Assembly: GCA_039812885.1 (NCBI GenBank)
Contig: JBDIBI010000015.1
Span: forward strand, 1-62,877
Direction of reading: 5' to 3'
DNA: 62,877 bases
DNA from: Blastocatellia bacterium
GTDB lineage: Bacteria; Acidobacteriota; Blastocatellia; Chloracidobacteriales; JADJPF01
Position numbers and translations under genes: made by a program. Positions within the stretch are counted from its first letter, which is position 1. Each line of letters opens with the position of its first letter. Below, piece by piece: positions 1 through 36,185 of this stretch. The notes below the pieces were generated by a model. The model was not told the DNA's origin and did not search any database. It saw nothing but the letters and a program-made list of their open reading frames with translations.

Positions 1-107
1 ACTACATTCTTGTCTCTTCCCTCTTCACCATTGGCATAGGAAGATACAACTGTACCCATCCAAAATAGTGCTAATGTAATTGCGATAGCTAAAGTTTTGA
101 GTTTCAC
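1..107 (-). CDS. Partial secreted protein; the N-terminus lies in the window and the gene runs off the left edge
   Basis: Minus-strand translation from GTG at 105-107 gives VKLKTLAIAITLALFWMGTVVSSYANGEEG. This is a classic signal peptide with an AxA-like cleavage site. It lies downstream of pstS on the same strand. No mature domain is visible. Confidence 0.35.
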   Translation of the reverse strand, partial: MKLKTLAIAITLALFWMGTVVSSYANGEEGRDKNV

Positions 108-256
108 TTTTTTCTCCTAAGCTAGGTTTGGCTTGGGTTATTATAATTTTGTTTTTGTAAAACCAAAATTTTCAGGAATTTTTATAACCCAGCTAAACTA
201 ACTACTTTTTTATCAATTGTTTTGTTTTACTAACAACCATTTGAGTTTATAGAGTT

Positions 257-1354
257 TTATAAAGCTAGGGCTTCGCCTTTAGCTTTTAAGCCCTTAACTT
301 TATCCTCAACTTTTTTAACTACTTCTGCTGGGAGTGGAGCATAATTAAGATCTTTAGCTAATTTTTGACCATCACTCATTGCCCATTTAATAAATTTAGC
401 CAAAGCTTCAGCTTTAGTTTTGCTGTCCATATCTTGGTAAACAAGTAGGTAGGTGTAGCTAGATATTGGATAAGCTCCATCACCTTCTGCATCGGTAATT
501 GAGGTTCTCATATCATCTGGAAGTTGAGCTACTGTGCCACTAGCTGCCGCAGTAACTGAATCTGGACTAGGAACAACAAACTTTCCAGCTTTGTTTTTTA
601 TAGAGGCAACAGGCATTTTATTTTGTACTGCATAAACTAATTCAGTATAACCAATAGCGCCTTCTACTTGTTTAACTTGACCTGTTACACCTTCGTTACC
701 TTTTCCACCTAAACCTACAGGCCAGTTTACAGAAGTACCTTTACCAACTTTATCTGCCCAAGTTTTACTAACTTTGCTTAAATAATCTACAAATACTGCT
801 GTAGTACCGCTACCATCTGAACGATGTACTACTGTAATTTCTTTATCTGGCAATTTAAGATCTTTATTATCTTCTACAATTTTAGGATCATTCCATTTCT
901 TAATATCCCCTAAGAAAATACCTGCTAGTACATCAGAAGTAAGTTTAAGTTCACCATTTACACTAGGTAAGTTATAAGTTGCTACAACAGCCCCTAAAGT
1001 AGTTGGAATATGAACTATTGGCTTTTTCAAAGTTTTTTGTTGATCATCTGTCATTGGAGCATCTGAAGCACCAAAATCTACTGTTTGCTCAGTAATTTGC
1101 TTGATACCACCACCAGATCCTATTGATTGATAGTCTATTTTAACATTTGGGTTTGCTTTGTTATATTCACTAATCCATTTAGAATAAAGAGGATAAGGAA
1201 ATGTTGCACCTGCTCCTTGTAAGGAAATTGTATCACCTTTTCCAGCATTACCACCATCTGTCTTTGTTCCAGAATCATCTGGCGCACCAGCGCAAGCTGT
1301 CCAAATTAATGAAAAAAGCATCGTTACTAAAACAAGATAAAATTTCTTTGACAT
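257..1354 (-). CDS. pstS: Phosphate ABC transporter substrate-binding protein PstS
   Basis: 365 aa with an N-terminal signal and lipoprotein-like Cys. Carries the motif GAGATFPYPLYSKWISEYNK and a TSDGSGTT-like region typical of the PstS family. Sits divergent from phoU. Confidence 0.85.
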   Translation of the reverse strand: MSKKFYLVLVTMLFSLIWTACAGAPDDSGTKTDGGNAGKGDTISLQGAGATFPYPLYSKWISEYNKANPNVKIDYQSIGSGGGIKQITEQTVDFGASDAPMTDDQQKTLKKPIVHIPTTLGAVVATYNLPSVNGELKLTSDVLAGIFLGDIKKWNDPKIVEDNKDLKLPDKEITVVHRSDGSGTTAVFVDYLSKVSKTWADKVGKGTSVNWPVGLGGKGNEGVTGQVKQVEGAIGYTELVYAVQNKMPVASIKNKAGKFVVPSPDSVTAAASGTVAQLPDDMRTSITDAEGDGAYPISSYTYLLVYQDMDSKTKAEALAKFIKWAMSDGQKLAKDLNYAPLPAEVVKKVEDKVKGLKAKGEALAL

Positions 1355-1434
1355 AAAAACCTTTCTATTTATCTACCTACTTTTATTTGAATTAAGAGTG
1401 CTTTAATTTATTTGTCTGTAGTCTAATGAATGGT

Positions 1435-1494
1435 TGTAAAGTGTCTGTTAAGCGACTGTAAAAAGTCTGTAACAGTCATGTAAAATTTATGTAA
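1435..1494. promoter_or_regulatory. Array of six phased 11-bp direct repeats with core TGTAA, a candidate PhoB/PhoP (Pho box) binding array in the pstS/phoU divergent promoter region
   Basis: TGTAA or TGTTA occurs at 1435, 1446, 1457, 1468, 1479 and 1490, an exact 11-bp periodicity equal to one helical turn. The units are gtctgttaagc, gactgtaaaaa, gtctgtaacag, tcatgtaaaat and ttatgtaaata. On the pstS strand they read TTACAG or TTACAT, resembling TT(A/T/C)ACA PhoP-type boxes. The E. coli Pho box is likewise a CTGTCAT direct repeat with 11-bp phasing. Confidence 0.5.
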
Positions 1495-1595
1495 ATAAGG
1501 GATTTACTGCTAATTTTACCTATAGAAGTACTAGCAGAAAGCTTAAAAAAAAAGTATCCTTTAGCACGTAATCATTCTACTTTTGGAGAGGTAAA

Positions 1596-2255
1596 ATGCC
1601 GTTTGAAGATGATGCACTTAATCTGCTGCGTGATAAAATTCTCCTCTTAGGTGGTGCAGCAGAAGCAGCAATTGCTAATGCGACTCAAGCTCTTTTAGAA
1701 AGAGATGCAGAGCTAGCAGAAACAGTTATTGCTGAAGATGATGAGATTGATCGGATGGAAAACGAAATTGATCAATATTGTAGTGATCTTTTAATTAATA
1801 AATTTTCTGTGAATTTAGATGCACGCTTTGTTATTTCTATCTCACGAGCGGCTCAAATAATTGAAAGAATAGCCGATCATGCAGTAAATATTGCTAAGCA
1901 TGCACTTGTATTAATTGACGAACCTAACCTTAAAACTCGGTTAGAAATAGCTAAACTAGCTGCTATTGCTCAAGAAATGCTCTTAGGTAGCTTAGATGCT
2001 CTTACTCGTTCAGATTGCCAATTAGCTTTTAACACTATTCATAAAGATGACTCAGCAGATCAGCTTTTTCATACCATTTATAACCAATTAATAGCTACAA
2101 TGGAACAAGACTCTAAAACTATAAGAAGAGCTGTCGAATTATTATTTACAATAAAACATCTAGAAAGAATTGCTGATTATGCAACTAATATTTGTGAAAT
2201 GGTAATTTATCTAGTAGAAGGTCGATTAATTAAACATACTCCAGAAGCAAAATAA
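1596..2255 (+). CDS. phoU: Phosphate signalling complex protein PhoU
   Basis: 219 aa. The duplicated PhoU-domain helices with acidic and His motifs (ERIADHAVNIAKH and ERIADYATNICE) are diagnostic of PhoU. Confidence 0.85.
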   Translation: MPFEDDALNLLRDKILLLGGAAEAAIANATQALLERDAELAETVIAEDDEIDRMENEIDQYCSDLLINKFSVNLDARFVISISRAAQIIERIADHAVNIAKHALVLIDEPNLKTRLEIAKLAAIAQEMLLGSLDALTRSDCQLAFNTIHKDDSADQLFHTIYNQLIATMEQDSKTIRRAVELLFTIKHLERIADYATNICEMVIYLVEGRLIKHTPEAK

Positions 2256-2298
2256 CTATCTGGAATTACGTAAAATAATCTATTGTGTAAAGTAAGTT

Positions 2299-3009
2299 AT
2301 GCTAAATAAAAACCGTATTTTAGTTATTGAAGATGATGAAGATATAGCCAATAATATTAAGTATAATCTAGAGCGTGGTGAGCCACATGAAGTTCTAATT
2401 GCTTTAACAGGTGAAGCAGGATTAGAACTTTGTGAAGGCAATGATTATGATTTAATAATACTTGATCTTAACCTCCCTGGAATGAGTGGTTTTGAATTAT
2501 GTAGGGCACTTAGACGAAGACAACGCACTTCACATGTACCAATTTTAATGCTTTCTGCACGTAGTAGCGAAGATGATAAAGTACATGGTTTTGATCTAGG
2601 AGCAGATGACTATGTAACTAAACCTTTTAGCATGCGTGAATTAAAAGCACGGGTTACAGTTCTGCTTAAACGTCGTAGCGAACCAATTAAAGCCACACCT
2701 TTTGATGATGGGCAACTAATGGTAGATTTTGAACAAATGTCTGTTCGTTTCCGTGGTCGTCCTGTTACTCTTACCCGTAAAGAATTTCAACTCTTAAAAT
2801 TACTATTAGAAAGCCGTGGGCGCATCCTTACCAGAGAACTATTACTAGAACGTGTATGGGGGTTAGAATATTTAGGCGAATCACGAACCATTGATGTGCA
2901 TGTTTCTCGTTTACGTCAAAAGTTAGGTGGAGATGAATATATCCAAACTGTAGTTGGGCTTGGGTATCGTTTTAAAGATCCTAAACAGGTAGAAGAATTT
3001 GATGAATGA
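2299..3009 (+). CDS. phoB: OmpR/PhoB-family response regulator (receiver domain plus winged-helix DNA-binding domain)
   Basis: Receiver domain carries the phospho-acceptor region DLIILDLNLPGMSG. The C-terminus has the OmpR-family winged helix (TRKEFQLLKLL...VWG...RTIDVHVSRLRQKL). Its position between phoU and a PAS histidine kinase supports a PhoB role. Confidence 0.7.
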   Translation: MLNKNRILVIEDDEDIANNIKYNLERGEPHEVLIALTGEAGLELCEGNDYDLIILDLNLPGMSGFELCRALRRRQRTSHVPILMLSARSSEDDKVHGFDLGADDYVTKPFSMRELKARVTVLLKRRSEPIKATPFDDGQLMVDFEQMSVRFRGRPVTLTRKEFQLLKLLLESRGRILTRELLLERVWGLEYLGESRTIDVHVSRLRQKLGGDEYIQTVVGLGYRFKDPKQVEEFDE

Positions 3010-4108
3010 AAATATTCTTAGCTCTTCAAATAGTAGCAAAATCAGGGAAGAGGTAACCAATAACCCTCTACTTAGAGCTTTGCTAGATGTAGTGCGTGAA
3101 GCTGTTTTAATAGTAGATTTAGACACTAAAATTGTCTTTACCAATCGTGCTGCCCGTGAGATATTTGCTTTTCCCACTAGTGATCAACCAGGGTTGCGTT
3201 TAACAGATGTAACTCGCAACAAAGAAATTTACACTTGTTTTACTACTTGCTTAAAAGAAAAAAATCTTTTTGAAAAAAAGATACACCTTCATACTAATAG
3301 TGGTGAACGGAAATTGGATCTTAAAGTAGAATCCATTACAACTACGGATTTAAGTGGTATAGAAAAAATTATAGGTGTAGTAGGAACATTTTTTGATAAC
3401 ACAAAGTTGGAAGCATTAGAACAAATGCGTCGAGAATTTTTTGCTAACCTTTCTCACGAATTACGAACACCTCTTACATCTATTGAAACCTATGCTGAGA
3501 CTTTGCTTTCTGGTGCACTTTATGACAATGAAAACAATGTAAAGTTTGTGGAAATAATTGCTAAACATGCAGCACGAATGCGCAATCTAGCCCAAGATAT
3601 TTCAGATCTAGCCGCAATAGAATCAGGCAAAGTGGCTATGCGTCCGCAACGAATAAAGATTACTCAAACAGTTCGTGAAGTGGCAGAACTCTTAAAAGAC
3701 GCTATTAACTCTAAAAAAATCTTATTTTCTAACCAAGTTCCTGAAGATTTATATGTTTTTGTAGATGCTAAAGCCTTAGAGCAAATTCTTTTTAACCTAG
3801 TACAAAACGCAGTAAATTTTAATCAGCCTAATGGCTCCATTACTGTTACAGCTAACCCTTGCGGGGATTATCAATTAATTAAAGTAACTGATACTGGAAT
3901 TGGTATAGAAAATAAACATATTCAAAGAATCTTTGAGCGTCTCTACAGAGTTGATGAATCTCGTTCAAGAAAAGAAGGTGGAACAGGTCTTGGTCTGGCA
4001 ATTGTTAAGCATTTAGTTCAAGCTCAAGGAGGAGCAATTTTTGTAGAAAGCACTCCTAATCAAGGTAGTACGTTTTCAGTCTCACTACCAACTTTTAAGA
4101 CAAGTTAA
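2999..4108 (+). CDS. phoR: Sensor histidine kinase, PhoR-like (PAS, HisKA and HATPase_c domains)
   Basis: H-box FFANLSHELRTPLTSI, N-box QNAVNF, G-boxes DTGIGI and GGTGLGLAIVKH. The start overlaps the upstream regulator by 11 nt. The PAS-like N-terminal region appears to lack long transmembrane helices. Confidence 0.65.
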   Translation: MMNENILSSSNSSKIREEVTNNPLLRALLDVVREAVLIVDLDTKIVFTNRAAREIFAFPTSDQPGLRLTDVTRNKEIYTCFTTCLKEKNLFEKKIHLHTNSGERKLDLKVESITTTDLSGIEKIIGVVGTFFDNTKLEALEQMRREFFANLSHELRTPLTSIETYAETLLSGALYDNENNVKFVEIIAKHAARMRNLAQDISDLAAIESGKVAMRPQRIKITQTVREVAELLKDAINSKKILFSNQVPEDLYVFVDAKALEQILFNLVQNAVNFNQPNGSITVTANPCGDYQLIKVTDTGIGIENKHIQRIFERLYRVDESRSRKEGGTGLGLAIVKHLVQAQGGAIFVESTPNQGSTFSVSLPTFKTS

Positions 4109-4345
4109 CAAAATTCTTGTAACTCATTATATACCAACAATAAAGCATTACCTTATTAGAGGTTTATCTAATAAGTATTTATTTCCTGTATTTTTGGAAC
4201 AAATATCTTACTCCCCCGTTTAACTCCTAAGACTGTTTTAATAGTCTTTAAAAACTTTCCGTTTTATTAAATAAGTATTTTAGTTTATTATTTTTTATTA
4301 ATTAAAATTTTGTAAATTTTATTAAAACTTCACTAGGATTTTATA

Positions 4346-5638
4346 ATGTCTACTCAATTGCCTATAGCATCGAGCAAAAAGAAGATTTTATGGCTTTCTC
4401 CTTTAATCATAATAGCTTTATTAATTCCTATAGTATTAAAAAGTGGCATTTCTTTTAATCCAAACAATATGTTTGCTAGTTTTTCCTCTTTACCTAAATT
4501 AGGTAAAACACCTCCAAAACTAGAAACTGTTACTATAGAAAAAGGAAAACTAGAAAAAACGTTTATACTAGATGGTGAACTACGTGCAGTAAGAGCAAGA
4601 TCTGTTTTTGCTTCTGGTGATAATGAAAGCAAAATCACTTATATGCCACTTGAAGGAACTAATATAAAAACTGGAGAGCGTTTAGTTGAGTTTGATAACT
4701 CCCCTGTTTCTAATAAGGTTCGTGAAGTTAAAGAGAAAATTATTTCGGCAGAAAATGAACTAGTTGAAATGAAGTCTAAGCATGAGTCTGAACTTCGTGA
4801 TTTGCAAGTAGATTTAAGCCGCTATTGGCTAGCTTATGAACAAGCTAAAATTGAGGCTAATGTTCCAGAAAATTTAATTGCTCGCCGAGATTATCAAGAA
4901 CGCCAACTTAACTTAGAAAAAGCTAAAACTGAGCATTCTAGCCATTTAGCTAAAATTGATAAGAAAAAACTAGAACAACAATCAGAATACCAAGCTAAAA
5001 ACCTAGAAAAAGAAAAACTAGAAGTAGATTTGCGTAAACTAGAAAGTCAGTTAGAGAGCCTTAATATCAAAGCTCCAACAGATGGAATTGTTATTTATGC
5101 AGATCATATTTTTGAGCCTCGCAAAGTTCAGATTGGAGATGTAGTTTGGAGTGGTTTTCCTGTAATCAATTTACCTGATTTAAGTGAATTAGAAGTTCTA
5201 TCACAAGTTAATGAAGTTGATGGACCAAAACTTTCTGTAGGCCAAAAGGCTCAAGTATCTTTAGATAGCTATCCTGATATTAAAATTAACGCCAAAATAA
5301 AAGAAATCTCTCAAACAGCAGCTAAATCCCGAACTACACGTTCAGATACCACTAAGATCTTTAAAGTAGTGTTCTCTCTAGAAAACACTTTAACAGATAT
5401 AATGAAACCCGGTATGTCCACACAAATTGTTATTAACCTAACAAATACAGAAGCACAAATACTAGTTCCCCGTTCCGCTGTAATATTTAGCAATAACCAA
5501 GCTCAAGTAACAAAGCTAGTTGGTGAACAATTACAAACATTTACAGTTAATATTTTAGATTCTGATACACATTTTTATGCAATCGCTCAAGATAACAAAT
5601 TACAACAAAGTGATAAACTTGTTATATCTCAAAACTAA
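4346..5638 (+). CDS. HlyD-family periplasmic adaptor (membrane fusion) protein, paralog 1
   Basis: N-terminal transmembrane anchor LWLSPLIIIALLIPIVL, a long coiled-coil, then a beta-barrel or lipoyl-like region (APTDGIVIY, QIGDVVWSG). Confidence 0.7.
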   Translation: MSTQLPIASSKKKILWLSPLIIIALLIPIVLKSGISFNPNNMFASFSSLPKLGKTPPKLETVTIEKGKLEKTFILDGELRAVRARSVFASGDNESKITYMPLEGTNIKTGERLVEFDNSPVSNKVREVKEKIISAENELVEMKSKHESELRDLQVDLSRYWLAYEQAKIEANVPENLIARRDYQERQLNLEKAKTEHSSHLAKIDKKKLEQQSEYQAKNLEKEKLEVDLRKLESQLESLNIKAPTDGIVIYADHIFEPRKVQIGDVVWSGFPVINLPDLSELEVLSQVNEVDGPKLSVGQKAQVSLDSYPDIKINAKIKEISQTAAKSRTTRSDTTKIFKVVFSLENTLTDIMKPGMSTQIVINLTNTEAQILVPRSAVIFSNNQAQVTKLVGEQLQTFTVNILDSDTHFYAIAQDNKLQQSDKLVISQN

Positions 5639-5641
5639 CTT

Positions 5642-6892
5642 ATGGGATTTACTATGATTAAAAAGCTTCTTAAAACCTTTTTTACTCTAGTACTTTTAGC
5701 TGCTGTTGCTATTTCAATATTTTTTCTTTCTACAAAGTTCTTTCCAATGCCTAAAGCAGTAACTAATGTAGAAGAACTTTTGATTGTTCCTAAAAAAGTT
5801 AAACTCTCGGTTGACTCAAATGGAGTGTTAAAAGCAGAGCAAGTTCAAAATTTTGGTGGCCCTCCAGCTTTTGAAAATCACTGGCAGTTTAAAATTAGCA
5901 ATATGATTGCTGAAGGCAAAGTAGTGAAAAAAGATGATTTATTGCTTTATTTTGAAGCTCAAGGAACATTTGAAGAACTTCAACAAGCACAAAACGAACT
6001 AGATCAAGCTAAAAAACAAGAAGAAAAAATGAAGGTTCAAATAGCTTTAGAAGAAGAAGGTCTTAAAGCTAAAGTAGCTGAAGCTCAACACAAATATGAA
6101 AGTGCAAAGCTAAAACAACAAACTAATGCTGAATTAGCAACTTCAAATACCATAGAAAAAGACCGCTTAGCCGTTGAGCAAGCTCGCCAAGAACTTGCTG
6201 CTTTAGAGGAAAAACTACTTTGGTATAAAAAATCTAGTGAAGCTAGTTACAACATAGTGGTAAGCCGTAAAGCTCGCGCTGAAAACAAAGTAAATAAAGT
6301 CCAAGCAGGCATGGCTCAGCTACAAATCAAAGCAGATCGTGAAGGTGTAGTAGTTTATAAAACCCGTTGGAATGGGGAAAAATTTCAGCTTGGAGAAAAT
6401 GTTTGGTCTGGTCAACCAATTATGGAAATTCCGGACTTAAAAACTATTTTTGCTCAAGCTTATGTTCCAGAAGTTGATATAGGTAAAATTAAGGTAGGAC
6501 AACCTGTAGACGTTAACATTGACGCTTTACCAGGACAAACTTACACAGGAAAAGTAAAGTCTATTGGTAGGCTGATTCATTCTAAATCTTGGGATATTCC
6601 TAACAAAGTTTTGGATGTTGAAATTGCACTAGACAATATTGACAGTGTTGTTATGCGTCCTGCAATGAGCTTAAAAGCCAAATTTGAAACGGCTAGTTTA
6701 GATAACGCTATTGCTATACCTCTTAGTGCAGTGCAAGTTGGAGCTATTGGGAATTTGGTAAAAATAAAAACTCCCAATGGTTGGCAAGAAAAACAAGTAA
6801 AACTAGGTGAATATACTGGCACAGATGTAATTGTTAATGAAGGACTTAGTGCTGGTGATAAAATTGCTAGTGACTTTACTAAAGCAAAATAA
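5642..6892 (+). CDS. HlyD-family periplasmic adaptor protein, paralog 2
   Basis: Transmembrane anchor FFTLVLLAAVAISIFFL, coiled-coil (QELAALEEKL) and a C-terminal barrel (KVGQPVDVNIDALPGQTYTGKV). The more likely start is the ATG near 5654. Confidence 0.7.
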   Translation: MGFTMIKKLLKTFFTLVLLAAVAISIFFLSTKFFPMPKAVTNVEELLIVPKKVKLSVDSNGVLKAEQVQNFGGPPAFENHWQFKISNMIAEGKVVKKDDLLLYFEAQGTFEELQQAQNELDQAKKQEEKMKVQIALEEEGLKAKVAEAQHKYESAKLKQQTNAELATSNTIEKDRLAVEQARQELAALEEKLLWYKKSSEASYNIVVSRKARAENKVNKVQAGMAQLQIKADREGVVVYKTRWNGEKFQLGENVWSGQPIMEIPDLKTIFAQAYVPEVDIGKIKVGQPVDVNIDALPGQTYTGKVKSIGRLIHSKSWDIPNKVLDVEIALDNIDSVVMRPAMSLKAKFETASLDNAIAIPLSAVQVGAIGNLVKIKTPNGWQEKQVKLGEYTGTDVIVNEGLSAGDKIASDFTKAK

Positions 6893-6894
6893 TT

Positions 6895-8169
6895 ATGCAA
6901 ATAATAAAAAAAATTCTTTCTATCATCTTTGTTGTTCTACTCTTATCAATAGGTGCTGTAGCAGGATTTAGAAAAGTTCAAGAATTTCTAGTCCCTGCTA
7001 AAACTCTGTATGTTCCACTTACTCTACAACTTACACCTCAAGATTTTGCAGTTAAAATTCAAGCTCCTGGAGAACTCCAATCCTCAGAAACCACTAAATT
7101 AGTTGTACCTAATGTCCCAGCAGAAAACCTTCGTATTGCAACAGTTGCAGCCGATGGGAGCTATGTTAACAAAGGCGATCTGTTAGTAGAATTTGACCCT
7201 ACACAATTAAACTTACAATTTCTAGAACAAAAATCTAATTTAGAAATAGCAAATCACAAAATAAGCAAAAGTGAATTGGCTGCCGAAGTAGATAGGTCTG
7301 ACTTAGTCAAAGAAAAAAAAGTTAGTCAGTTAGAGCTAGATAATATCTCACAATTTCAGCCAAAAGATGAGCTTATTTACTCTAAACGTCAAATTCTAGA
7401 AGGAGAATTAAACAAAGATTATACTGAGAAAAAAATTCTTCTAGCTAATGCTCGTCTAGAATTAAAAGGCAAAGTTTATTCATTAGATGAAGCTATTTTG
7501 CTTTTAGAACAACAACAAGCCAATGCCAAAATTAACCAAGCAGAAAAGGCTCTTTCTTCACTTAAGCTCACTTCTCCAACAGCTGGAATTGTTGATTATA
7601 AAGACCGTTATAGTGGTTTTTGGGCAATAATGCCAGGCCGCAATGTTTACCCTGGTATGGCCTTATTTGACCTGATAAACCCTAACAAAATGGAAGCTAA
7701 GTGTTATGTTTTAGAAAAAGATGCTGGACAACTAAAAATTGACCAAAAAGTTATAGTTACACTAGATCCTTTCCCAGGAAAAGAATTTACTGGAAAAGTG
7801 AAAAATATTGATAATCTTGCCCGCCCCATTGACCGTGATTCTCCTGTAAAGTATTTCCAAACTGTTATTTCATTAGATACTAATGAACCTGCGTTGATGA
7901 AACCAGGTATTAAACTCAAAGCTAATATTCAAGCAGAAGAAATAAAACAAGCTTTAGTTGTTCCTAGAAGTGCCTTACTAGAAAAAGATGGTAAGTATTT
8001 TGCTTATGTTCAAGTAGGAACTCAATTTGAAACTAAGCCTGTTACGCTTGGACAAGGTGATTTAATTCAAGTAGTTATAACCGAAGGTCTAAAATCAGGT
8101 CAAACTATTGCATTAAATCCACCTAATGCTAAACAAAGTTTTTCACAAAAAGATCCTAATAAAAAATAG
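6895..8169 (+). CDS. HlyD-family periplasmic adaptor protein, paralog 3
   Basis: Transmembrane anchor ILSIIFVVLLLSIGAVAG, coiled-coil, SPTAGIVDY and FPGKEFTGKVKNI. Same architecture as the two preceding genes. Confidence 0.7.
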   Translation: MQIIKKILSIIFVVLLLSIGAVAGFRKVQEFLVPAKTLYVPLTLQLTPQDFAVKIQAPGELQSSETTKLVVPNVPAENLRIATVAADGSYVNKGDLLVEFDPTQLNLQFLEQKSNLEIANHKISKSELAAEVDRSDLVKEKKVSQLELDNISQFQPKDELIYSKRQILEGELNKDYTEKKILLANARLELKGKVYSLDEAILLLEQQQANAKINQAEKALSSLKLTSPTAGIVDYKDRYSGFWAIMPGRNVYPGMALFDLINPNKMEAKCYVLEKDAGQLKIDQKVIVTLDPFPGKEFTGKVKNIDNLARPIDRDSPVKYFQTVISLDTNEPALMKPGIKLKANIQAEEIKQALVVPRSALLEKDGKYFAYVQVGTQFETKPVTLGQGDLIQVVITEGLKSGQTIALNPPNAKQSFSQKDPNKK

Positions 8170-8212
8170 AAGTTAATTTAACTAACTCTAAACTTAAGTT
8201 GGGTTTACATAA

Positions 8213-9451
8213 ATGGCATATTTATCAGACTTAAAATTAGCAATAGGAAATCTTCAAACCCATAAATTACGCACTTTTCTAACTATGTTAGGCATGATTT
8301 TTGGAGTTGGGGCTGTAATAGCAATGCTTTCCATTGGTGCAGGTGCAGAACAAGAAAGCTTACGTATTATTGACACTATGGGAGTGCGTAATATTATAGT
8401 AAAGGATAAAGAGTTTAAGGACGAAGATTTAAAGAAAATCAGAGAAACATCTCTAGGTTTATCACTAAGAGATGTTCAAGCAATTCAATCTGTAACTCCA
8501 CAATTAGAAACCTATTCAGCTAAAAAGAAGGTTAAAACTTTTCAAATATTTTCTTTTTCTGGGAAAGCAGATGATTCAAATGTTCTTGGTGTAAGCCCTA
8601 CGTATTTTAGATTAGCTAAATATAATTTATTAGAGGGGGGCTTTTTTTCTGAAATAGATGAGAAAAACTATGAACAATTTTGTGTAATAGGTTCAAGAGT
8701 TAGGCAAAAGCTTTTTAACAAAGTTTCCCCTATAGGTAAACAAATTAAAATCAATAAGTTATGGTTTACAGTTATTGGAGTTTTAACCGATAATAATTTA
8801 GGCAAAGATGAATTTGAAGGTGTTAAACTACAAGACTTTAGCAATGATATTTATATTCCTATCACAACAGCACTTAAGAAATTTGATCTTAAGCGTCTAG
8901 AATCTGAACTAGATGAGCTTATTTTAAGTGTTAAAACAACAGATACACTTAAGGCAAGTGCTGTGCTTATCAATCAAGTAATAGTTAATACTCATAACAA
9001 AGCTGAAGATTTTTCCATAGTGCTTCCTCGTGAGTTATTAGAACAAAATCAAAAAACCCAAAACATTTTTAACATTGTAATGAGTTGTATTGCTGGCATT
9101 GCGCTTTTAGTAGGTGGTATAGGAATCATGAATATTATGCTAGCAAATATTCTAGAACGAACTCGTGAAATAGGCATTCGCCGAGCTATTGGAGCACGTA
9201 GGCGAGATATAATGCTGCAATTTCTTATGGAAGCTCTGACAATAAGCTTATCTGGTGGAATTTTAGGTATAGTCTTTGGCTTTGGAGCATCTCGTTTAGT
9301 AGCTATTTATGCTGATTGGACAACAGTTGTAACTAGCACTTCAATTATTATGTCTTTTGGTGTATCAGCTAGTGTAGGGTTGATTTTTGGAATTTACCCA
9401 GCTATTACAGCATCCCGTTTAAACCCAATAGATGCACTACGTTATGAATAG
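8213..9451 (+). CDS. ABC-transporter permease of the MacB/FtsX family (MacB-like periplasmic domain plus FtsX 4-TM domain), with no ATPase domain
   Basis: N-terminal transmembrane helix LRTFLTMLGMIFGVGAVIAML, a periplasmic domain of about 200 aa, then a C-terminal FtsX domain (IGIRRAIGARRRDIMLQFLMEAL). There is no Walker A or B motif in this ORF or adjacent to it. Confidence 0.75.
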   Translation: MAYLSDLKLAIGNLQTHKLRTFLTMLGMIFGVGAVIAMLSIGAGAEQESLRIIDTMGVRNIIVKDKEFKDEDLKKIRETSLGLSLRDVQAIQSVTPQLETYSAKKKVKTFQIFSFSGKADDSNVLGVSPTYFRLAKYNLLEGGFFSEIDEKNYEQFCVIGSRVRQKLFNKVSPIGKQIKINKLWFTVIGVLTDNNLGKDEFEGVKLQDFSNDIYIPITTALKKFDLKRLESELDELILSVKTTDTLKASAVLINQVIVNTHNKAEDFSIVLPRELLEQNQKTQNIFNIVMSCIAGIALLVGGIGIMNIMLANILERTREIGIRRAIGARRRDIMLQFLMEALTISLSGGILGIVFGFGASRLVAIYADWTTVVTSTSIIMSFGVSASVGLIFGIYPAITASRLNPIDALRYE

Positions 9452-9531
9452 AAAACAGAAACTCCTAATCTAAACAGCATTTCTATTTTCTATTTAGATT
9501 AGGAGTAAATCTAGTAAAAAAACCTAAGGAG

Positions 9532-10632
9532 TTATTGTACTGCCAACATACGATCTAAAGCTACTCTAGCCCAATGAGCAACTGTTTCTGGAACTTTGAT
9601 TTGATTAACGATTGTACCAGCTTTTAAGTTATCCAATGCCCAAAGAATATTTTCTGGAGCAATACGAAACATAGTTGAACACATGCAAAGATCTGGAGCA
9701 AGTAATCTAACAAAACGATCTGGATATTCATTCTTTAAGCGGTTTACTAGGTTGACCTCTGTTCCAACTGCCCATTGGCTACCTACAGGACTATTAGCAA
9801 TAGTCTTAATAATATATTCTGTTGAACCAACAAAATCAGCTTTTTGCACTACACCCCAAGAACACTCAGGATGAACTAATACATTAATTCCAGGATGTTC
9901 TTTTCTTACTTCATCAACATGCCAAGGTTGGAAACGTGCATGTACAGAGCAATGCCCTTTCCATAAGATAATCTTAGCTTTCTCTAATGCTTCTGGAGTA
10001 TTTCCACCTAATTCTTGATATGGATCCCAAACCACCATATCATCTAAAGAAACCCCTTTAGCATAAGCGGTATTGCGTCCTAAGTGTTGATCTGGAAAGA
10101 AGAAAATCTTTTCTTTTTGTCCCCAAGCCCAATCAAAAATGCCTTTAGCATTAGAAGAAGTACAAACAGCTCCACTTCTTTCTCCACAAAAAGCTTTTAC
10201 TGCTGCTGTAGAGTTCATATAAGTAATAGGCAACACAGAGTTAATCCCCAAATCATCTAACTCATCCCAAGCAGCTTCTACTTGCTCTATCGTAGCCATA
10301 TCAGCCATTGAACAACCTGCTGCTAAATCAGGCAAAATAACTTTTTGATGTGGTTTGCTTAGAATATCTGCGGATTCAGCCATAAAATGCACACCACAAA
10401 AAACTATAAATTCAGCAGATCTTTGTGATGCCATCTCTGAGAGCTTAAAAGAATCTCCTCGTAAATCTGAATGGCAAATCACATCATCACGTTGATAGTG
10501 ATGTCCTAAAATGACAAGCTGTTGACCTAACTCACGACGTATTGCTTCTATTCTTTGACCTAATTCTGGTTGATTAATACTAAAATAGGCTTCGAAAGGA
10601 CGTGCAACTCGTTTTAATTGTGCTACTTGCAT
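9532..10632 (-). CDS. nadA: Quinolinate synthase NadA
   Basis: 366 aa NadA family with conserved Cys ligands and HFMAESADI-like motifs. It is the correct length for NadA. Confidence 0.8.
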   Translation of the reverse strand: MQVAQLKRVARPFEAYFSINQPELGQRIEAIRRELGQQLVILGHHYQRDDVICHSDLRGDSFKLSEMASQRSAEFIVFCGVHFMAESADILSKPHQKVILPDLAAGCSMADMATIEQVEAAWDELDDLGINSVLPITYMNSTAAVKAFCGERSGAVCTSSNAKGIFDWAWGQKEKIFFFPDQHLGRNTAYAKGVSLDDMVVWDPYQELGGNTPEALEKAKIILWKGHCSVHARFQPWHVDEVRKEHPGINVLVHPECSWGVVQKADFVGSTEYIIKTIANSPVGSQWAVGTEVNLVNRLKNEYPDRFVRLLAPDLCMCSTMFRIAPENILWALDNLKAGTIVNQIKVPETVAHWARVALDRMLAVQ

Positions 10633-26189: not shown

Positions 26190-26526
26190 TCTACTTGATC
26201 AACCTAGGGTTAGTTTAACACTAACTCTAGGTTTCCCACTTAAATAAACCTTCTCTTCAAAATCATAACTAGTCAACTACCTACCCGTAAACGGGTAGGC
26301 TTGAGGGCGTAAAAGCCAACAAGCCCAGTTGAGCAGACTAAGCTTAGAAATAAGCTACGTTACGAAGAGAGTTAAAGAACGCACCCTAGAATGCGAGCCA
26401 GTTCTAGGCTCTGTAACTTCTAAGTTAAACAGACGTAAGGGTATAAAGTCAGTGCCTAGAAGAAATACTGATTCGTAACATTGTCGAGGCAAACATAACC
26501 ATAGAAATATGAGGTTTTTACTAACT
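26190..26526 (+). ncRNA. Candidate omega-RNA of the IscB locus: a structured non-coding region immediately upstream of iscB in the same orientation
   Basis: About 330 nt with no credible ORF, packed with stem-loops. (1) 26202-26232 is a 12-bp stem with one G·U pair. (2) CCTACCCG-TAAA-CGGGTAGG at 26280-26299 is a perfect 8-bp stem. (3) ggctt/aagcc at 26298-26317. (4) AGCTTA-GAAA-TAAGCT at 26341-26356. (5) CCTAGAA(26385-26391)/TTCTAGG(26402-26408). In addition, cctagaag recurs at 26454-26461, giving alternative, pseudoknot-like pairing. Its position relative to iscB matches the known organisation of omega-RNA followed by iscB. Confidence 0.55.
26202..26232 (+). other. Imperfect palindromic hairpin just after the alaS stop: either the alaS terminator or the IS200/605-like left-end subterminal hairpin
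   Basis: ACCTAGGGTTAG-tttaaca-CTAACTCTAGGT gives 12 pairs including one G·U. It is followed by tttccc, which is not a strong U-tract. Confidence 0.4.
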
Positions 26527-27822
26527 ATGCAAAAAGTATTTGTACTAGATACCAAGGGAAAACAACTAGATATGTGTCATCCTGGACAAGCTAGAAGGCT
26601 TTTGAAAGCTGGACAGGCAGCAGTGTATAAGCGTTTTCCTTTTACAATTAAACTTAAACGAGAAGTATGTAAGGCAGACTTACAAAACTATCAACTAAAG
26701 TTAGATCCTGGCAGTAAAAAAACAGGTGTTGCAATTGTTAACCAAGAAACAGGAGAAGTAGTCTTTGCTGCTAAAATAGAACATCGTGGACAAACTATTA
26801 AAGTTAGTTTAGATAATCGTCGTGAAGTTCGTCGTAATAGGCGAAACAGAAAGACTCGTTATCGTAAGTCTAGGTTTCATAATAGAACTCGCTCTAAAGG
26901 TTGGTTAGCACCTTCTCTACTGAGTAGAGTAGCTAATGTAGAAACTTGGGTTAGAAAGCTAATACAGTTGTGCCCAATAAGTGGAATTAGCTTAGAACTT
27001 GTTAAATTTGATACTCAGTTAATGCAAAATGCTGAAATTAAAGGGGTTCAATACCAACAAGGGACTTTAGCTGGTTATGAGCTGCGCGAGTATCTACTGG
27101 AGAAGTACAAGCGTAAATGTGCTTATTGCAAGAAAGAAAATATCCCTTTACAGATAGAGCATATAGTTCCAAAAAGCAGAGGTGGTAGTAATAGAGTGAC
27201 AAACCTAACTTTGGCTTGCGAAAAATGCAACTTAAAGAAAGCTAATAAAACTGCTACAGAATTTGGTTATCCTGAAGTTCAAGCTCAAGCTAAATTACCA
27301 TTAAAAGATGCTGCTGCTGTAAATAGTACAAGATGGGAAATATACAATAGGCTAAAGGGATTTGCTTTGCCAATAGAAACAGGTAGTGGTGGACTAACTA
27401 AGTTTAATCGTGCTAGCCAAAACTTACCTAAGACACATTACATAGATGCAGCATGTGTTGGAATAAGCACACCATTACTAAAACTAGATAAAGTACAAGT
27501 ACTAGAGATAAAAGCTACAGGACAGGGCACTCGCCAAATGTGTAAAGTAGATAAAATAGGATTTCCTCGCACTAGCGCAAAAACAGCAAAGAAGTTTTTT
27601 GGTTTTCAAACAGGAGACATAGTTAAAGCAATTGTTACTAGTGGTAAAAAAATTGGTACTTATATTGGTAAAGTTGCGGTTCGTGCTACGGGCTTTTTTG
27701 CCATTATCACTACTTCTGGCAAGGTCGATTCCATTAAGCATAACTTTTGCAAACTACTCTTTGCTTGTGATGGTTACTCTTATTCTTACTCTATATCAAA
27801 TGGCAATTCCTCCACAGCCTAA
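26509..27822 (+). CDS. iscB: IscB, an OMEGA-system RNA-guided endonuclease (Cas9 ancestor). It has a PLMP-like N-domain, split RuvC, an Arg-rich bridge helix, an HNH zinc finger and a C-terminal TAM-interaction-like domain
   Basis: The 437-aa ORF probably starts in reality at the ATG at 26527 (MQKVFVLD...). N-domain motifs KRFPFTIKL. RuvC-I LKLDPGSKKTGVAIV with Asp66 (nt 26704-26706). Bridge helix RREVRRNRRNRKTRYRKSRFHNRTR. RuvC-II ISLELVKFD with Glu163 (26995-26997). HNH CAYC...IEHIVPKSRGGSNRVTNLTLACEKCN with His218 (27160-27162) and CxxC...CxxC. RuvC-III THYIDAACVG with His310 and Asp313 (27436-27447). The whole order matches characterised IscB proteins such as OgeuIscB. Confidence 0.85.
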   Translation: MRFLLTMQKVFVLDTKGKQLDMCHPGQARRLLKAGQAAVYKRFPFTIKLKREVCKADLQNYQLKLDPGSKKTGVAIVNQETGEVVFAAKIEHRGQTIKVSLDNRREVRRNRRNRKTRYRKSRFHNRTRSKGWLAPSLLSRVANVETWVRKLIQLCPISGISLELVKFDTQLMQNAEIKGVQYQQGTLAGYELREYLLEKYKRKCAYCKKENIPLQIEHIVPKSRGGSNRVTNLTLACEKCNLKKANKTATEFGYPEVQAQAKLPLKDAAAVNSTRWEIYNRLKGFALPIETGSGGLTKFNRASQNLPKTHYIDAACVGISTPLLKLDKVQVLEIKATGQGTRQMCKVDKIGFPRTSAKTAKKFFGFQTGDIVKAIVTSGKKIGTYIGKVAVRATGFFAIITTSGKVDSIKHNFCKLLFACDGYSYSYSISNGNSSTA

Positions 27823-27856: not shown

Positions 27857-30800
27857 ATGAGCAATAATATGATGGATCCAATAATTGGGCGCGCATTAGG
27901 GGATTTTCTAGTTAAGGAAAAGCTAGGAGAAGGTGGATTTGGAGCTGTTTATAAAGCAAGTCAAATTACTTTAGACCGTGAAGCTGTAGTTAAAATTCTT
28001 CATACTCGCCATCGTACTGACATAAACATAATAGAACGTTTTAAGCGAGAAGCCCGTCTAGCTTCGCGTTTAGAACATCCATATTGTGCTCATATTTATT
28101 CATTTGGAGCTGAAGAGGATGGATTATTATGGATTGCGATGGAATTAGTTGATGGAACTCCATTAAATGAAATAGTTAAATCCCAAGGCCCATTACCATT
28201 AGAACGCTTTATCCCTTTGTTAGATAAAATTTGTGAAGTTGTTCATACTGCACATGAAACAGGCATAGTTCATCGAGATATTAAACCTGCTAATGTTATG
28301 GTTATTTCTAGAGCTGGACGACTTTTACCTAAACTCCTAGATTTTGGTATTGCTAAGGATCTATCCCTTCAAAATGGCTCATTTGATAAAACTAGTGAAC
28401 TATCTACAGATAAATTACCTGATTTAATAAATGAATTTGATAGCTTAAAAAACACCCTTAGAAAAAACTCTTTGCAACTTGCTGAATCCAAACATCCAAC
28501 ATTATTTGTTAATACTTTGTTAGCTAAAGAAACTGATGAACAAAACCTTGACCTAGCTACAAATAAAATTACTCATCTTGTAAAAACACATGGAATAATG
28601 GGCTCACCTAGCTATATGGCTCCTGAACAGTGGAAAAATGCTGTTACAGCAGATGCTCGTAGTGATATTTATGCCTTAGGAGTTACTGCATATGAACTGC
28701 TTACGGGTAAATTGCCTTTCAAAGGCTCTATGAATACATTGATGAATGCACATCTTAACAAGCCTATTCCAACTTTAGCTACAACATTTGCAGAAAAGTT
28801 TGATCCAATAATTGCTAAAGCTATGGCTAAAAATGCTGAAGATCGCTATCAAACAGCTTTAGAGTTTGCTAAAGATTTCCGTGAAGCAGCTAATTTTACT
28901 CAAGAACAAATAATCCTACCTCATCTAGATGAAATACTTAAAGAAAATTTATTAACCAATGCCCCAAAACCTTTAGCTGATATGGTTGCAAGCCTTGTAG
29001 CGGCTCGCAATGCTTATCAATTTAGAGATAGATTATTTTTGGTGTTGCATGTTTTAATACGGTACATAAGCATATTAACCCTAGCAAGCTATGCAAGTAC
29101 TATTACAAATGAGCAAACTTCTGAGTTAATTACTAAAACAATAGCTAATTTACGTCATAATAGTTTAACTGATTTAGAATGGTTAGAACTTTCGAGAGAA
29201 CTATGCAGACCTTTTGCTAAAAAAAGAGATGCTTTTCCTATCCCAGAACTAATAACTGTATTTTTTGCAATAGATAGTGAACATCTTAACTTTCTAAATG
29301 AAACATTTCTTAAGCTCTTGCAAATGCAAGATGAAATAAATTCCAATGCTTCACTAAAAGAAGAGCAGCTAGTAACTTTACTGGCTCATTTCTTAACTAA
29401 ACTTACTTATTTATTAAAAGCTACAGCTTGGTTAAGTGATTATTACTTAGTACTTCCAGAAGCCAATAGAGCAACTAAATGGATGGGAATAGCTAAAGAG
29501 ATAAGTTCAATAAGTTTAAAAACCAGCAATATAACTAACCAAAAGGCTATTTTGGTAGATGCACAAGGGCATTTTGTCTTAACACTTTGGCCATTAATAG
29601 AAATAGTTGAACCTACCCCAGGAATGTCATTAGAAGTTTTTCTACTAGAGCGCAAAGGTCGTAATTCAGCAAAATTAGTTTCATTTCCTGATGGATTTGA
29701 AATAGAAACTGAAGCTCCTTGGGACTGGTTAAAACAACACTTTATTACAGATGAAGAAAAGGCAAAAACAGCAAAGCTGATAGAAAAATCTCCATATCTA
29801 GGTTTAGCTACCTTTTCAGCAAAAGACTCAAATTTGTTTTTTGGGCGAGAAAAAGAAACAGAAAACTTTCTAAATCGTTTGCGTATTCAACCATTACTTG
29901 CAGTTGTAGGGCCATCAGGAGCAGGAAAAAGTTCTTTTATTCAAGCTGGTGTTGTGGCTGGGCTTGATGAGAATTGGCAAGTTATAACAGTTCGCCCTGG
30001 ACTTTCCCCTATTGCTACATTAGCTAGCAAACTTTCAAAAGTAGGTATTGAGCTAGTAGATTTAAAAATTAAATTACAAAAAGATATAAATTTCCTAGGT
30101 AATAGCTTACGTCAATTTGCTAGTGAGCAAAATAGTCAAATCTTATTAATAATAGATCAATTTGAAGAAATCCTAACACTCTGTTTAGACAAGCAGGAAC
30201 AACAACTCTATGTAGAAGCAATAGTTTTAGCCGCACGCTCTGAAGAAGATCCTATTAGAGTTGTACTAACAATGAGAGATGATTTTTTGGTAAAAGCTAA
30301 AAAGCTAAAAGCTCTAAAAGATCGTCTTAACCAAGCATTAGAAATACTCACAACTCCAGCATCTACAGAACTTATTAAAATCCTTACAGAACCAGCTAGA
30401 CAAGCAGGCTATGAGTTTGAAGATCAAGAACTTCCTGTAGAAATTGTAAATGAAGTTACAGAACAAACTAGTGCCTTACCATTACTAGCATTTACAGCAG
30501 CAAAACTTTGGCAACAACGAGACAAAGAGTTTAAGCAACTCAGGCGCAGAAGTTATGAAGCAATGGGAGGTGTAGGAGGTGCATTAGCACGTCATGCTGA
30601 AAGTATGTTGTTGCAAATGACTCATATAGAACAATCTCTTGTTCGTGAAGCATTTCGTCATTTGGTCACAAGTGAAGGAACAAGAGCCGTTCTAACTCGT
30701 CCAGAGATATTGCAATTGTTAGGCAAAAGTGGCGAAAGTGAAGCTGTATTAGAAAAATTAATTTCCGCTAGGCTTCTAGTTGCAACTGAAGGAGAAAAAG

Positions 30801-35183: not shown

Positions 35184-36185
35184 TTATTTCTCCATTGCAT
35201 TAGTAACTTTTATCTTGCCAGATATAATATCTTCTTTAGCTTTTTTAACTTTTTCTATTGCTTCAGGTGATATTAAGTTGCGATTGTAATCATCTATGGC
35301 AAAATCTACACCTTCATTTTCCAAACCATAGACATGAATACCACTCTTAAAGCGTTTTTCTACAATATCCTTGATTACACTATAAACAGCCACATCTACT
35401 CGTTTAAGCATACTAGTTAGAATAAAACCTGGTTTAATACCATTTTGGTTAGAATCTACACCAATTGCCAATTTTTTTGTTTCTTCTGCTGCATCAAAAA
35501 CACCCATTCCAGAATTACCAGCAGCATGAAAGACTACATCACATCCATTTTCATACTGATTTTTAGCTAATTCTTTACCCTTAGCAGGATTATTCCAAGC
35601 AGCATCTGTAATACCCACATAGTTTTCAACTATTTTGATGTTGGGGTTAACATATTTTGCACCCTCTTCATAACCTACAGCAAACTTGTGAATAAGTGGA
35701 ATATCCATTCCACCAACAAAACCTATTTTGCCTGAAGTACTTTTACCAGCAGCTAACATTCCAACCAAAAAAGAACCCTCATGCTCTTTAAAAAGTAATG
35801 GAGAGACATTAGGTAATAAAACAAAACCATCAATAATGGCAAAGTTAACATTAGGATAATCTTTTGCAACTTGTTCAATTATTGGAGATTGAGCAAAACC
35901 TACACCAATAACAAGATCATATTTAAGCTCTGCAAAGGCACGAAGAGAAGGTTCTATTGAAGTTGGATCCCCTGGCTCAGCATCCCGCAATTTAATTCCT
36001 AGTTCATTGCGAGCACGTTTTACACCTTCCCAAGCAGCAGCATTAAAAGATCTATCATCTTTGCCACCAATATCATATACAATTCCAACACGAACTTGCC
36101 CAGGTTTTTCATTTTCAGAAAAAACTCCTGTACAACCAGAAAAAACTAAAATAGCTAATAAACAAAATAAGATTACTCGTTTCAT
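35184..36185 (-). CDS. BMP-family (Med/PnrA-like) ABC-transporter substrate-binding lipoprotein
   Basis: Lipoprotein signal FSGCTG, then VRVGIVYDIGGKDDRSFNAAAWEGVKRA and GVGFAQ motifs of the basic membrane protein family. Confidence 0.7.
   Translation of the reverse strand: MKRVILFCLLAILVFSGCTGVFSENEKPGQVRVGIVYDIGGKDDRSFNAAAWEGVKRARNELGIKLRDAEPGDPTSIEPSLRAFAELKYDLVIGVGFAQSPIIEQVAKDYPNVNFAIIDGFVLLPNVSPLLFKEHEGSFLVGMLAAGKSTSGKIGFVGGMDIPLIHKFAVGYEEGAKYVNPNIKIVENYVGITDAAWNNPAKGKELAKNQYENGCDVVFHAAGNSGMGVFDAAEETKKLAIGVDSNQNGIKPGFILTSMLKRVDVAVYSVIKDIVEKRFKSGIHVYGLENEGVDFAIDDYNRNLISPEAIEKVKKAKEDIISGKIKVTNAMEK

Follow-up and report, generated by a model that had tools for sequence, protein, structure and literature searches.

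We analysed a contig of a Blastocatellia bacterium (GenBank assembly GCA_039812885.1, contig JBDIBI010000015.1) along its full 62,877 nt, referred to here as the window, and found that it carries four consecutive genes for three periplasmic adaptors (A1, A2 and A3) and a permease (P) that probably encode a MacB-type pump with an unlinked ATPase, three co-assembling adaptors and a promoter of their own of the extracytoplasmic function (ECF) sigma type. According to this explanation, the four products would be the inner-membrane and periplasmic parts of an envelope-spanning export pump in a low-GC acidobacterium, in which P would form the usual dimer and be powered by an ATP-binding cassette (ABC) ATPase encoded elsewhere, ATP-driven movement reaching the periplasmic domain by mechanotransmission, by way of the coupling helix. 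A1, A2 and A3 would be non-redundant membrane-anchored adaptors of fixed stoichiometry that assemble into a six-membered ring (A1-A2-A3)x2, the three paralogs filling the three non-equivalent adaptor positions that face each MacB protomer, with the ring docking onto an unlinked TolC-like duct. Transcription from an ECF-sigma-type promoter would suggest a role in envelope stress or defence and not in the response to phosphate. The parts themselves, a MacB-type permease and adaptors of the membrane fusion protein (MFP) family, are ordinary; the unusual aspect is the fixed adaptor trio, the missing ATPase being largely explained.

The open reading frame (ORF) listing of the window, combined with Pfam and NCBIfam family scans of 43 ORFs, exactly reproduced the genes that an earlier note, made from the letters of this DNA, had described: three adaptors, a permease and the flanking phoR and nadA. 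The adaptors match HlyD_D23 and HlyD_3 above the Pfam gathering scores (2.4e-11 and 6.3e-10 for A1; 2e-14 and 2.8e-13 for A2; both also for A3), and A3 passes the cut-off of the NCBIfam RND_mfp model (119.9 bits, cut-off 94.9); the MacA equivalog model scores the three at 45-48 bits (cut-off 342). A single hydrophobic helix is present at the N-terminus of each (residues 11-39 in A1), and the split lipoyl domain, the hairpin, the beta domains and the anchor of MFP/HlyD/MacA adaptors are all recognizable. A 123-residue insert is flanked by the conserved lipoyl motifs xFD and xAPxxG, and the membrane-proximal domain is indicated by weak precomputed ortholog matches (CzcB_C, RND-MFP_C) and by strands 354-397 of the A3 model only. 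Pairwise identity among the three proteins is 25-27% across almost the whole length (blastp E 1e-22 to 1e-35), and their alignment has zero gaps over the 123-residue hairpin; they are thus old paralogs and not fragments of one gene, which bears out the description of complete paralogs in the earlier note. The ORFs of the three adaptors and of P are all intact.

An AlphaFold2 (AF2) model of A3, built from the alignment of the three paralogs, comprises a transmembrane (TM) helix (residues 2-28), two hairpin helices (103-153 and 164-221, with a predicted local distance difference test score (pLDDT) of about 90) and beta domains. The leading fold matches of this model are MacA, AcrA and EmrA, and its top match among solved structures is MacA in the MacAB-TolC assembly (5NIK_D, E 5e-16); by sequence, the top PDB match of A3 is the TriA-TriB fusion 6VEJ. 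The modelled hairpin helices, 51 and 58 residues long, would give a stalk of about 75-85 A (taking 1.5 A per residue), similar in length to the MacA stem of 70 A (PMC5985334).

P contains a MacB_PCD domain (1.3e-35, 124 bits, residues 21-248) and an FtsX domain (3.1e-22, 79 bits, residues 292-405), both above the Pfam gathering scores, and four hydrophobic segments (19-46, 282-315, about 333-367 and 376-396). It thus has the four TM helices and the large periplasmic domain between TM1 and TM2 that define type VII ABC permeases, and it is matched end to end by the TM and periplasmic domains of the MacB structures 5GKO, 5LIL and 5NIK (E 8e-51 to 1e-43), while the split permease 5XU1_M, part of the Spr0694-0695 pump of S. 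pneumoniae, covers residues 5-412 of P (E 8e-51 to 2e-43 over all structures); the MacB-like FtsX permease of the earlier note is confirmed on these grounds. The NCBIfam MacB model scores P at 200 bits, and the LolC/E models stay far below their cut-offs (TIGR02212, 45 bits, cut-off 362; LolC NF008076, 28 bits, cut-off 473). An exhaustive representative search placed P in the very large MacB-type family, with 129,043 proteins at E <= 1e-3, and the clusters nearest to it consist mainly of unfused proteins of about 410 aa. The major coupling helix of the TM2-TM3 cytoplasmic loop, which is the contact site of the ATPase (PMC8277102), is retained in P as ERTREIGIRRAIGARRRDI, aligned to ERTQEIGVRMAVGARQSDI of A. 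baumannii MacB. Conservation of this loop exceeds that of the whole protein in the Blastocatellia family (0.87 vs 0.77), in a second Acidobacteriota family (0.79 vs 0.53) and among diverse representatives (0.70 vs 0.39), and it equals that in ATPase-linked relatives.

At least 11 Acidobacteriota contexts, whose flanks are unrelated, hold the four genes as a conserved cassette. Among homologs of P, the closest are 72-100% identical and all about 412 aa long, and those that are named come from Blastocatellia or Acidobacteria metagenome-assembled genomes (MAGs); the search of reference genome contigs with P returned four loci. The order A1-A2-A3-P is kept in seven distinct Blastocatellia contexts (L005, L006, L009, L011, L013, L015 and L016; GC 34-56%), in which the best match of each gene is its positional counterpart (A1 45-69%, A2 46-70%, A3 56-73% and P 73-90% identical) and the flanks are of five different kinds: pstS-phoU-phoB-phoR upstream of the cassette in the window and its closest relatives L009, L013 and L014 only, another OmpR-type two-component system upstream in L011, peptidase M28 and ThiS in L005 and L006, and unrelated genes in L015 and L016. 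A second acidobacterial family (L017-L020) has the identical layout with a permease 49-57% identical to P. Between the window and L009, P and PhoB are 89% and 88% identical and the adaptors 69-72%. We note that L009 and L011, with a P that is 89% identical, are GTDB representative MAGs titled 'uncultured Clostridia bacterium', a title that looks wrong given that their nearest named relatives are Blastocatellia MAGs.

The earlier note had reported no ATPase at the locus, and this holds for the whole 62.9-kb window: a regular-expression scan found no combination of Walker A and LSGGQ in any frame, the ABC_tran family is absent from the 43 scanned ORFs, and tblastn of the window with eight ATPases of the MacB type that related loci had supplied, six of them encoded in multi-adaptor operons, reached a best E of 0.019, the matches being P-loops of unrelated NTPases. 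An ATPase in another frame or from an alternative start of P was rejected as a candidate on the negative regular-expression and tblastn results and on an A3-P gap of only 43 nt. A weak tblastn match at 4178-4225 (FISCIFGTNILLPRLT, aligned to the Q-loop region IGFIFQSFHLLPRLT; E 0.4-8) hinted at an ATPase relic by its place upstream of A1; this reading was likewise rejected because the match overlaps the conserved sequence GGAAC-N16-CGTT and its frame is not kept in L009, L013 and L014.

Certain homologous operons, in contrast, include the ATPase. In a graded sample of 80 metagenome loci with permeases 33-50% identical to P, annotated with purpose-built profiles, the layout below about 40% identity is the canonical adaptor-ATPase-permease (27 complete loci and nine truncated upstream), and at 41-50% identity most loci have three adaptors. 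An ATPase is encoded directly 5' of the three adaptors in four of them (L021, L022, L024 and L030) and 3' of the permease in L036, and operon-borne ATPases also occur in the homologous loci L101 and L102; seven loci have three adaptors and no ATPase in the locus (L025, L027, L028, L029, L034, L039 and L086). The operon of Shewanella sediminis HAW-EB3 (CP000821.1, about 3.306-3.311 Mb) encodes, with an overlap at every gene junction, an ATPase of 228 aa, adaptors of 343, 399 and 420 aa that best match A1, A2 and A3 in this order (29, 27 and 31% identity) and a permease of 418 aa with 50% identity to P; the five-gene layout recurs on a P. tunicata-type contig. A profile of six cognate ATPases matched only Gammaproteobacteria, marine and cultured (Shewanella sediminis, S. 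woodyi, S. violacea, S. benthica, Colwellia, Pseudoalteromonas, Thalassotalea and Woeseiaceae), the five-gene operons of Colwellia, Thalassotalea and Woeseiaceae being indicated by ATPase similarity only. Since the ATPase resides in homologous operons and the coupling loop of P is conserved, the pump is most likely ATP-driven, its predicted ATPase being encoded at an unlinked site in the genome. An unlinked ATPase as such is not rare, because about six single-adaptor relatives with ample flanks are also without a linked one. In L030, a second canonical system (adaptor, ATPase and two permeases, 1-3917) lies directly 5' of the five-gene operon, so that two MacB-type pumps stand in tandem.

Comparison of the adaptors across loci showed that the three positions are kept apart. 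In 21 loci, the nearest neighbour from any other locus occupies the same position for 61 of the 63 adaptors, a neighbour-joining (NJ) tree renders each position monophyletic within its clade, and each position has its own conserved hairpin signature. The hairpins, measured as the residues between the lipoyl motifs xFD and xAPxxG, are of equal length within every three-adaptor locus (22 of 22), with 123/123/123 residues in 14 loci, among them the window and Shewanella, and 122/122/122 in eight; in the metagenome sample, single adaptors of related pumps have hairpins of 78-303 residues. The position-1 adaptor is without about 60 C-terminal residues in nine of the 22 loci and is therefore unlikely to be self-sufficient, as a homo-oligomer, in these. 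As MacAB-TolC joins dimeric MacB to hexameric MacA and trimeric TolC (2:6:3; PMC5985334, PMC5595328), each MacB protomer faces three adaptors, and TriABC, with its two obligatory adaptors (PMC8277102), provides a precedent for the use of more than one. The equal hairpin lengths fit, without proving, an (A1A2A3)x2 hexamer of mixed composition that surrounds the permease dimer. An obligate adaptor ring of this hetero-hexameric kind, in what would be an undescribed class of pumps of the MacB type, widespread in Acidobacteriota and marine Gammaproteobacteria, is in our estimation a serious possibility of slightly less than even chance; a MacA-type homo-hexamer would then have been sub-functionalised to the two-fold symmetry of the transporter, with each paralog at one non-equivalent position.

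In light of what is known of related machines, the cassette combines familiar traits in an unfamiliar way. Akin to A1, A2 and A3, the MacA of MacAB-TolC (E. coli, A. baumannii and A. actinomycetemcomitans) is membrane-anchored by an N-terminal helix, and MacA is the best match of the A3 model; however, MacB has its ATPase fused N-terminally and works with one adaptor as a homo-hexamer, whereas P stands alone, with no linked ATPase, beside three paralogs. The operons of marine Gammaproteobacteria, for which our full-text literature search found no experimental study, are the nearest counterparts, with three position-matched adaptors, a 50%-identical permease and hairpins that all measure 123 residues, but their first gene encodes an ABC ATPase and their position-1 adaptor (319-347 aa) is without about 60 C-terminal residues. 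TriABC-OpmH of P. aeruginosa also needs more than one adaptor paralog (PMC8277102) and supplies the top PDB match of A3, yet TriC is a trimer of the resistance-nodulation-division (RND) type driven by proton-motive force, for which an (AB)x3 ring fits the three-fold symmetry, while the transporter of the cassette would be a MacB-type dimer, for which the ring of three adaptors would be (ABC)x2. In the split systems YknXYZ (Bacillus), Spr0693-0694-0695 (S. pneumoniae) and VarACDEF (V. cholerae), ATPase and permease are separate polypeptides as well (PMC5985334, PMC5595328), but the ATPase gene is adjacent and the adaptor single. DevBCA-HgdD, the envelope-spanning cyanobacterial glycolipid exporter, is likewise composed of adaptor, FtsX-type permease and ATPase, with one adaptor and a linked ATPase; the DevB model TIGR02971 scores A1, A2 and A3 at only 32.7, 52.3 and 33.6 bits (cut-off 129), and the DevC model is absent from the matches of P. 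Of the DevBCA/MacAB paradigm invoked in the earlier note, the likeness to MacAB therefore stands and that to DevBCA is weaker. The acidobacterial duplicated orphan permeases (ADOP, TIGR03434) are, according to the family description, FtsX-family proteins without adjacent ATPase genes. TIGR03434 matches P at 141 bits, but only in one half (model positions 516-803) and below its cut-off of 622; ADOP proteins are duplicated, of about 800 aa with eight TM helices and no adaptors described, and P is a single module with four TM helices. Neither a three-adaptor MacB-type system nor the acidobacterial cassette was described in any paper reached by our full-text literature search.

As to regulation, the sequence GGAAC-N16-CGTT upstream of A1 is the sole match in the window on both strands (0.15 expected by chance) and the only block conserved in the A1 upstream regions of the window, L009, L013, L014 and L011. 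In the form G[GA]AAC-N16-CGTT it occurs 5' of A1 in every Blastocatellia cassette, irrespective of flank or GC content, 66-190 nt before the start codon, and seven of its eight occurrences on both strands of seven related loci are at this position; the five-gene operons of Gammaproteobacteria have no GGAAC-N16-CGTT upstream. ECF sigma promoters are typified by a -35 element with AAC and a -10 element with CGT, separated by about 16-17 nt (PMC8103513), and the motif upstream of A1 fits this pattern. A sigma-54 reading of TGGAAC was rejected because the -12 GC element is wrongly spaced, and the ECF type is preferred. The cassette is most likely transcribed from this predicted ECF-sigma-type promoter of its own, and control of the envelope-stress type would be a better guess than control by phosphate. 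In L017, which is without G[GA]AAC-N16-CGTT, the adaptor genes (649, 124 and 372 aa) look frameshifted, perhaps owing to long-read assembly errors.

Phosphate-dependent control had been thought conceivable in the earlier note, and taken further it would make the cassette a member of the Pho regulon, co-transcribed with phoU-phoB-phoR and serving in phosphate starvation. The cassette lies on the same strand 237 nt 3' of phoR, read-through is possible because no terminator was detected in this gap (a scan of 3900-9700 for sigma-70 promoters and terminators gave fewer matches than shuffled sequences and is uninformative), and the pstS-phoU-phoB-phoR neighbourhood recurs in L009, L013 and L014. 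Yet this neighbourhood is absent from the equally close L011 and from L005, L006, L015 and L016-L020, while the ECF-type motif travels with the cassette. Pho-box-like repeats are found at pstS-phoU and not upstream of A1; there, the divergent intergenic region (1435-1494) contains six TGTWA repeats at an exact spacing of 11 nt; TGTWA-N6-TGTWA matches the window seven times (1.9 expected), five times in overlapping register within that region and never at 4109-4345 upstream of A1, and the two regions share no k-mer of 10 nt or more. With such an array at pstS-phoU and nothing similar 5' of A1, phosphate control is unsupported, and we regard membership of the Pho regulon as improbable. A machine that needs no ABC ATPase at all, be it a conduit (passive or proton-driven) or a scaffold or sensor of the envelope, appears to us slightly less credible still. 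It is favoured by the absence of ATPase genes from the window and from within 10 kb of the 11 acidobacterial cassettes, which weighs against an ATP-driven pump, as well as from the seven metagenome loci with three adaptors and a permease and from the single-adaptor relatives L037, L043, L050 and L054. However, homologs of the same architecture have the ATPase in the operon, the coupling loop is among the best-conserved parts of P and of the same type as that of MacB, and no type VII ABC permease is known to act without its ATPase (PMC5985334, PMC8277102). A decaying locus, left over from a five-gene operon whose ATPase was lost and now heading towards pseudogenes, would also be in keeping with the missing ATPase and with the weak tblastn match to a Q-loop, but that match coincides with the GGAAC-N16-CGTT site and is not kept in frame in the close relatives, all four ORFs are intact, and P is 73-90% identical across genomes of 34-56% GC and as conserved towards L009 as PhoB. 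At the level of sequence, decay is refuted by purifying selection over at least 11 contexts, and we give it a negligible chance. Thus, among the three options that the earlier note had offered for the ATPase, its being encoded elsewhere is clearly favoured, an incomplete locus drops out, and a system that is not ATP-driven is less favoured.

The adaptors could also act as alternatives, with A1, A2 and A3 forming separate homo-hexamers on the same permease dimer and thus three interchangeable pumps for different substrates or ducts. Each paralog is complete in the window (TM anchor, lipoyl domain, hairpin and beta domains), the conserved hairpin signatures are position-specific and two-adaptor relatives exist, all of which would suit such an arrangement. 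Nonetheless, we consider it unlikely: none of the 22 three-adaptor loci has lost or reshuffled a paralog, the C-terminal segment whose absence at position 1 makes solo function doubtful is missing in nine of them, the tight or overlapping gene junctions (2-3 nt between the adaptor genes of the window) point to equimolar synthesis, and no hairpin indel has arisen despite a paralog identity of about 25%. The suggestion of hetero-oligomeric adaptors in the earlier note thereby gains indirect support from the fixed order, the co-retention, the equal hairpins and the shortened position 1, and that of substrate diversification becomes less likely. Several observations nevertheless weigh against the mixed ring and the pump that we propose. 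Equal hairpin lengths would also be expected of three separate homo-hexamers that reach the same duct, a two-fold (A1A2A3)x2 ring is mismatched with the three-fold TolC trimer, and L032 and L062, with an ATPase and only two adaptors, indicate that three are not obligatory in the wider clade. Confidence in the A3 model is modest (overall pLDDT 65.9). No TolC-like or OEP gene is among the 43 scanned ORFs of the window, and a TolC-family gene adjoins the cassette in L017 only. Between the 122- and 123-residue hairpin clades, cross-clade best matches agree in position in 32 of 66 cases, and in the NJ tree the adaptors of the 122 clade form one group with 66% bootstrap support. We had considered one ancient triplication as the origin of every three-adaptor locus, but it is unsupported across the two clades; the claim is confined within clades, and triplication may have occurred twice, once per hairpin clade.

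Two side observations concern these relatives. The loci L037, L040, L043, L044, L050 and L064 encode a single adaptor and a permease 38-41% identical to P, with no adjacent ATPase; their hairpins measure exactly 122 residues, as in the 122-type three-adaptor clade, of which they may represent the ancestral state. In L017 (2894-6039), the TolC-family (OEP) gene and the first adaptor gene point away from each other, and genes for an ECF sigma factor and a zf-HC2 anti-sigma factor lie just beyond the former.

The features of the cassette are compiled in Table 1. The gaps A1/A2, A2/A3 and A3/P measure 3, 2 and 43 nt; upstream of A1, a gene for a phoR-like kinase (2999-4108) ends 237 nt before it, and downstream of P lies the convergent nadA (9532-10632). 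The inverted repeat between P and nadA is a possible bidirectional terminator: the predicted RNA fold of 9452-9531, which contains the ACTCCTAATCTAAA / TTTAGATTAGGAGT stem, has an energy of -19.5 kcal/mol, and the stem was missed by the consensus terminator scan, which demands G+C-rich stems.

Table 1. Positions of the cassette genes and of the associated sequence elements in the window.
Feature	Position	Strand	Basis
A1 adaptor (430 aa), position 1, MFP/HlyD family, N-terminal TM anchor	4346-5638	+	ORF listing and Pfam
A2 adaptor (416 aa), position 2, periplasmic	5642-6892	+	ORF listing and Pfam
A3 adaptor (424 aa), position 3, periplasmic	6895-8169	+	ORF listing and Pfam
P permease (412 aa), MacB-type (type VII ABC), TM and periplasmic subunit, no fused ATPase domain	8213-9451	+	Pfam and structure alignment
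GGAAC-N16-CGTT, ECF-sigma-type promoter-like motif, starting 150 nt 5' of the A1 start codon	4196-4220	+	
14-bp perfect inverted repeat ACTCCTAATCTAAA / TTTAGATTAGGAGT between convergent P and nadA	9461-9506	no strand	Sequence inspection

Elsewhere in the window, a HEARO RNA (26272-26499, + strand; Rfam RF02033, 136 bits, gathering score 83) lies just after alaS and is followed directly by a 437-aa ORF with RRXRR and HNH domains (26509-27822, + strand), an architecture of the IscB/omega-RNA type (OMEGA, IS200/IS605-related). A gene at 27857-33193 (+ strand) encodes a protein of 1778 aa that joins a Ser/Thr kinase, an nSTAND1 NTPase, WD40 propellers and a C-terminal FGE-sulfatase domain, and genes for FGE-sulfatase and kinase proteins are also found near the cassette in L005 and L006. 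A PnrA/Bmp-family substrate-binding protein (35184-36185, - strand) has no adjacent ABC permease or ATPase gene and is thus another unlinked ABC component.

The symmetry mismatch of MacAB-TolC (dimer, hexamer and trimer) is hard to dissect with six identical adaptors. If the proposed ring is correct, three position-specific adaptors would label its three non-equivalent positions genetically, so that ATPase activation, ring sealing and duct opening might prove separable, as TriA and TriB allowed for RND pumps, and the system would be the first three-adaptor tripartite pump. The ATPase-linked version in culturable Shewanella and Pseudoalteromonas renders the idea directly testable. In Acidobacteriota, the cassette would represent a highly conserved envelope function under predicted ECF-type regulation whose energising subunit is consistently encoded at an unlinked site, a point of relevance to the long-standing puzzle that orphan FtsX-type permeases pose in the phylum.

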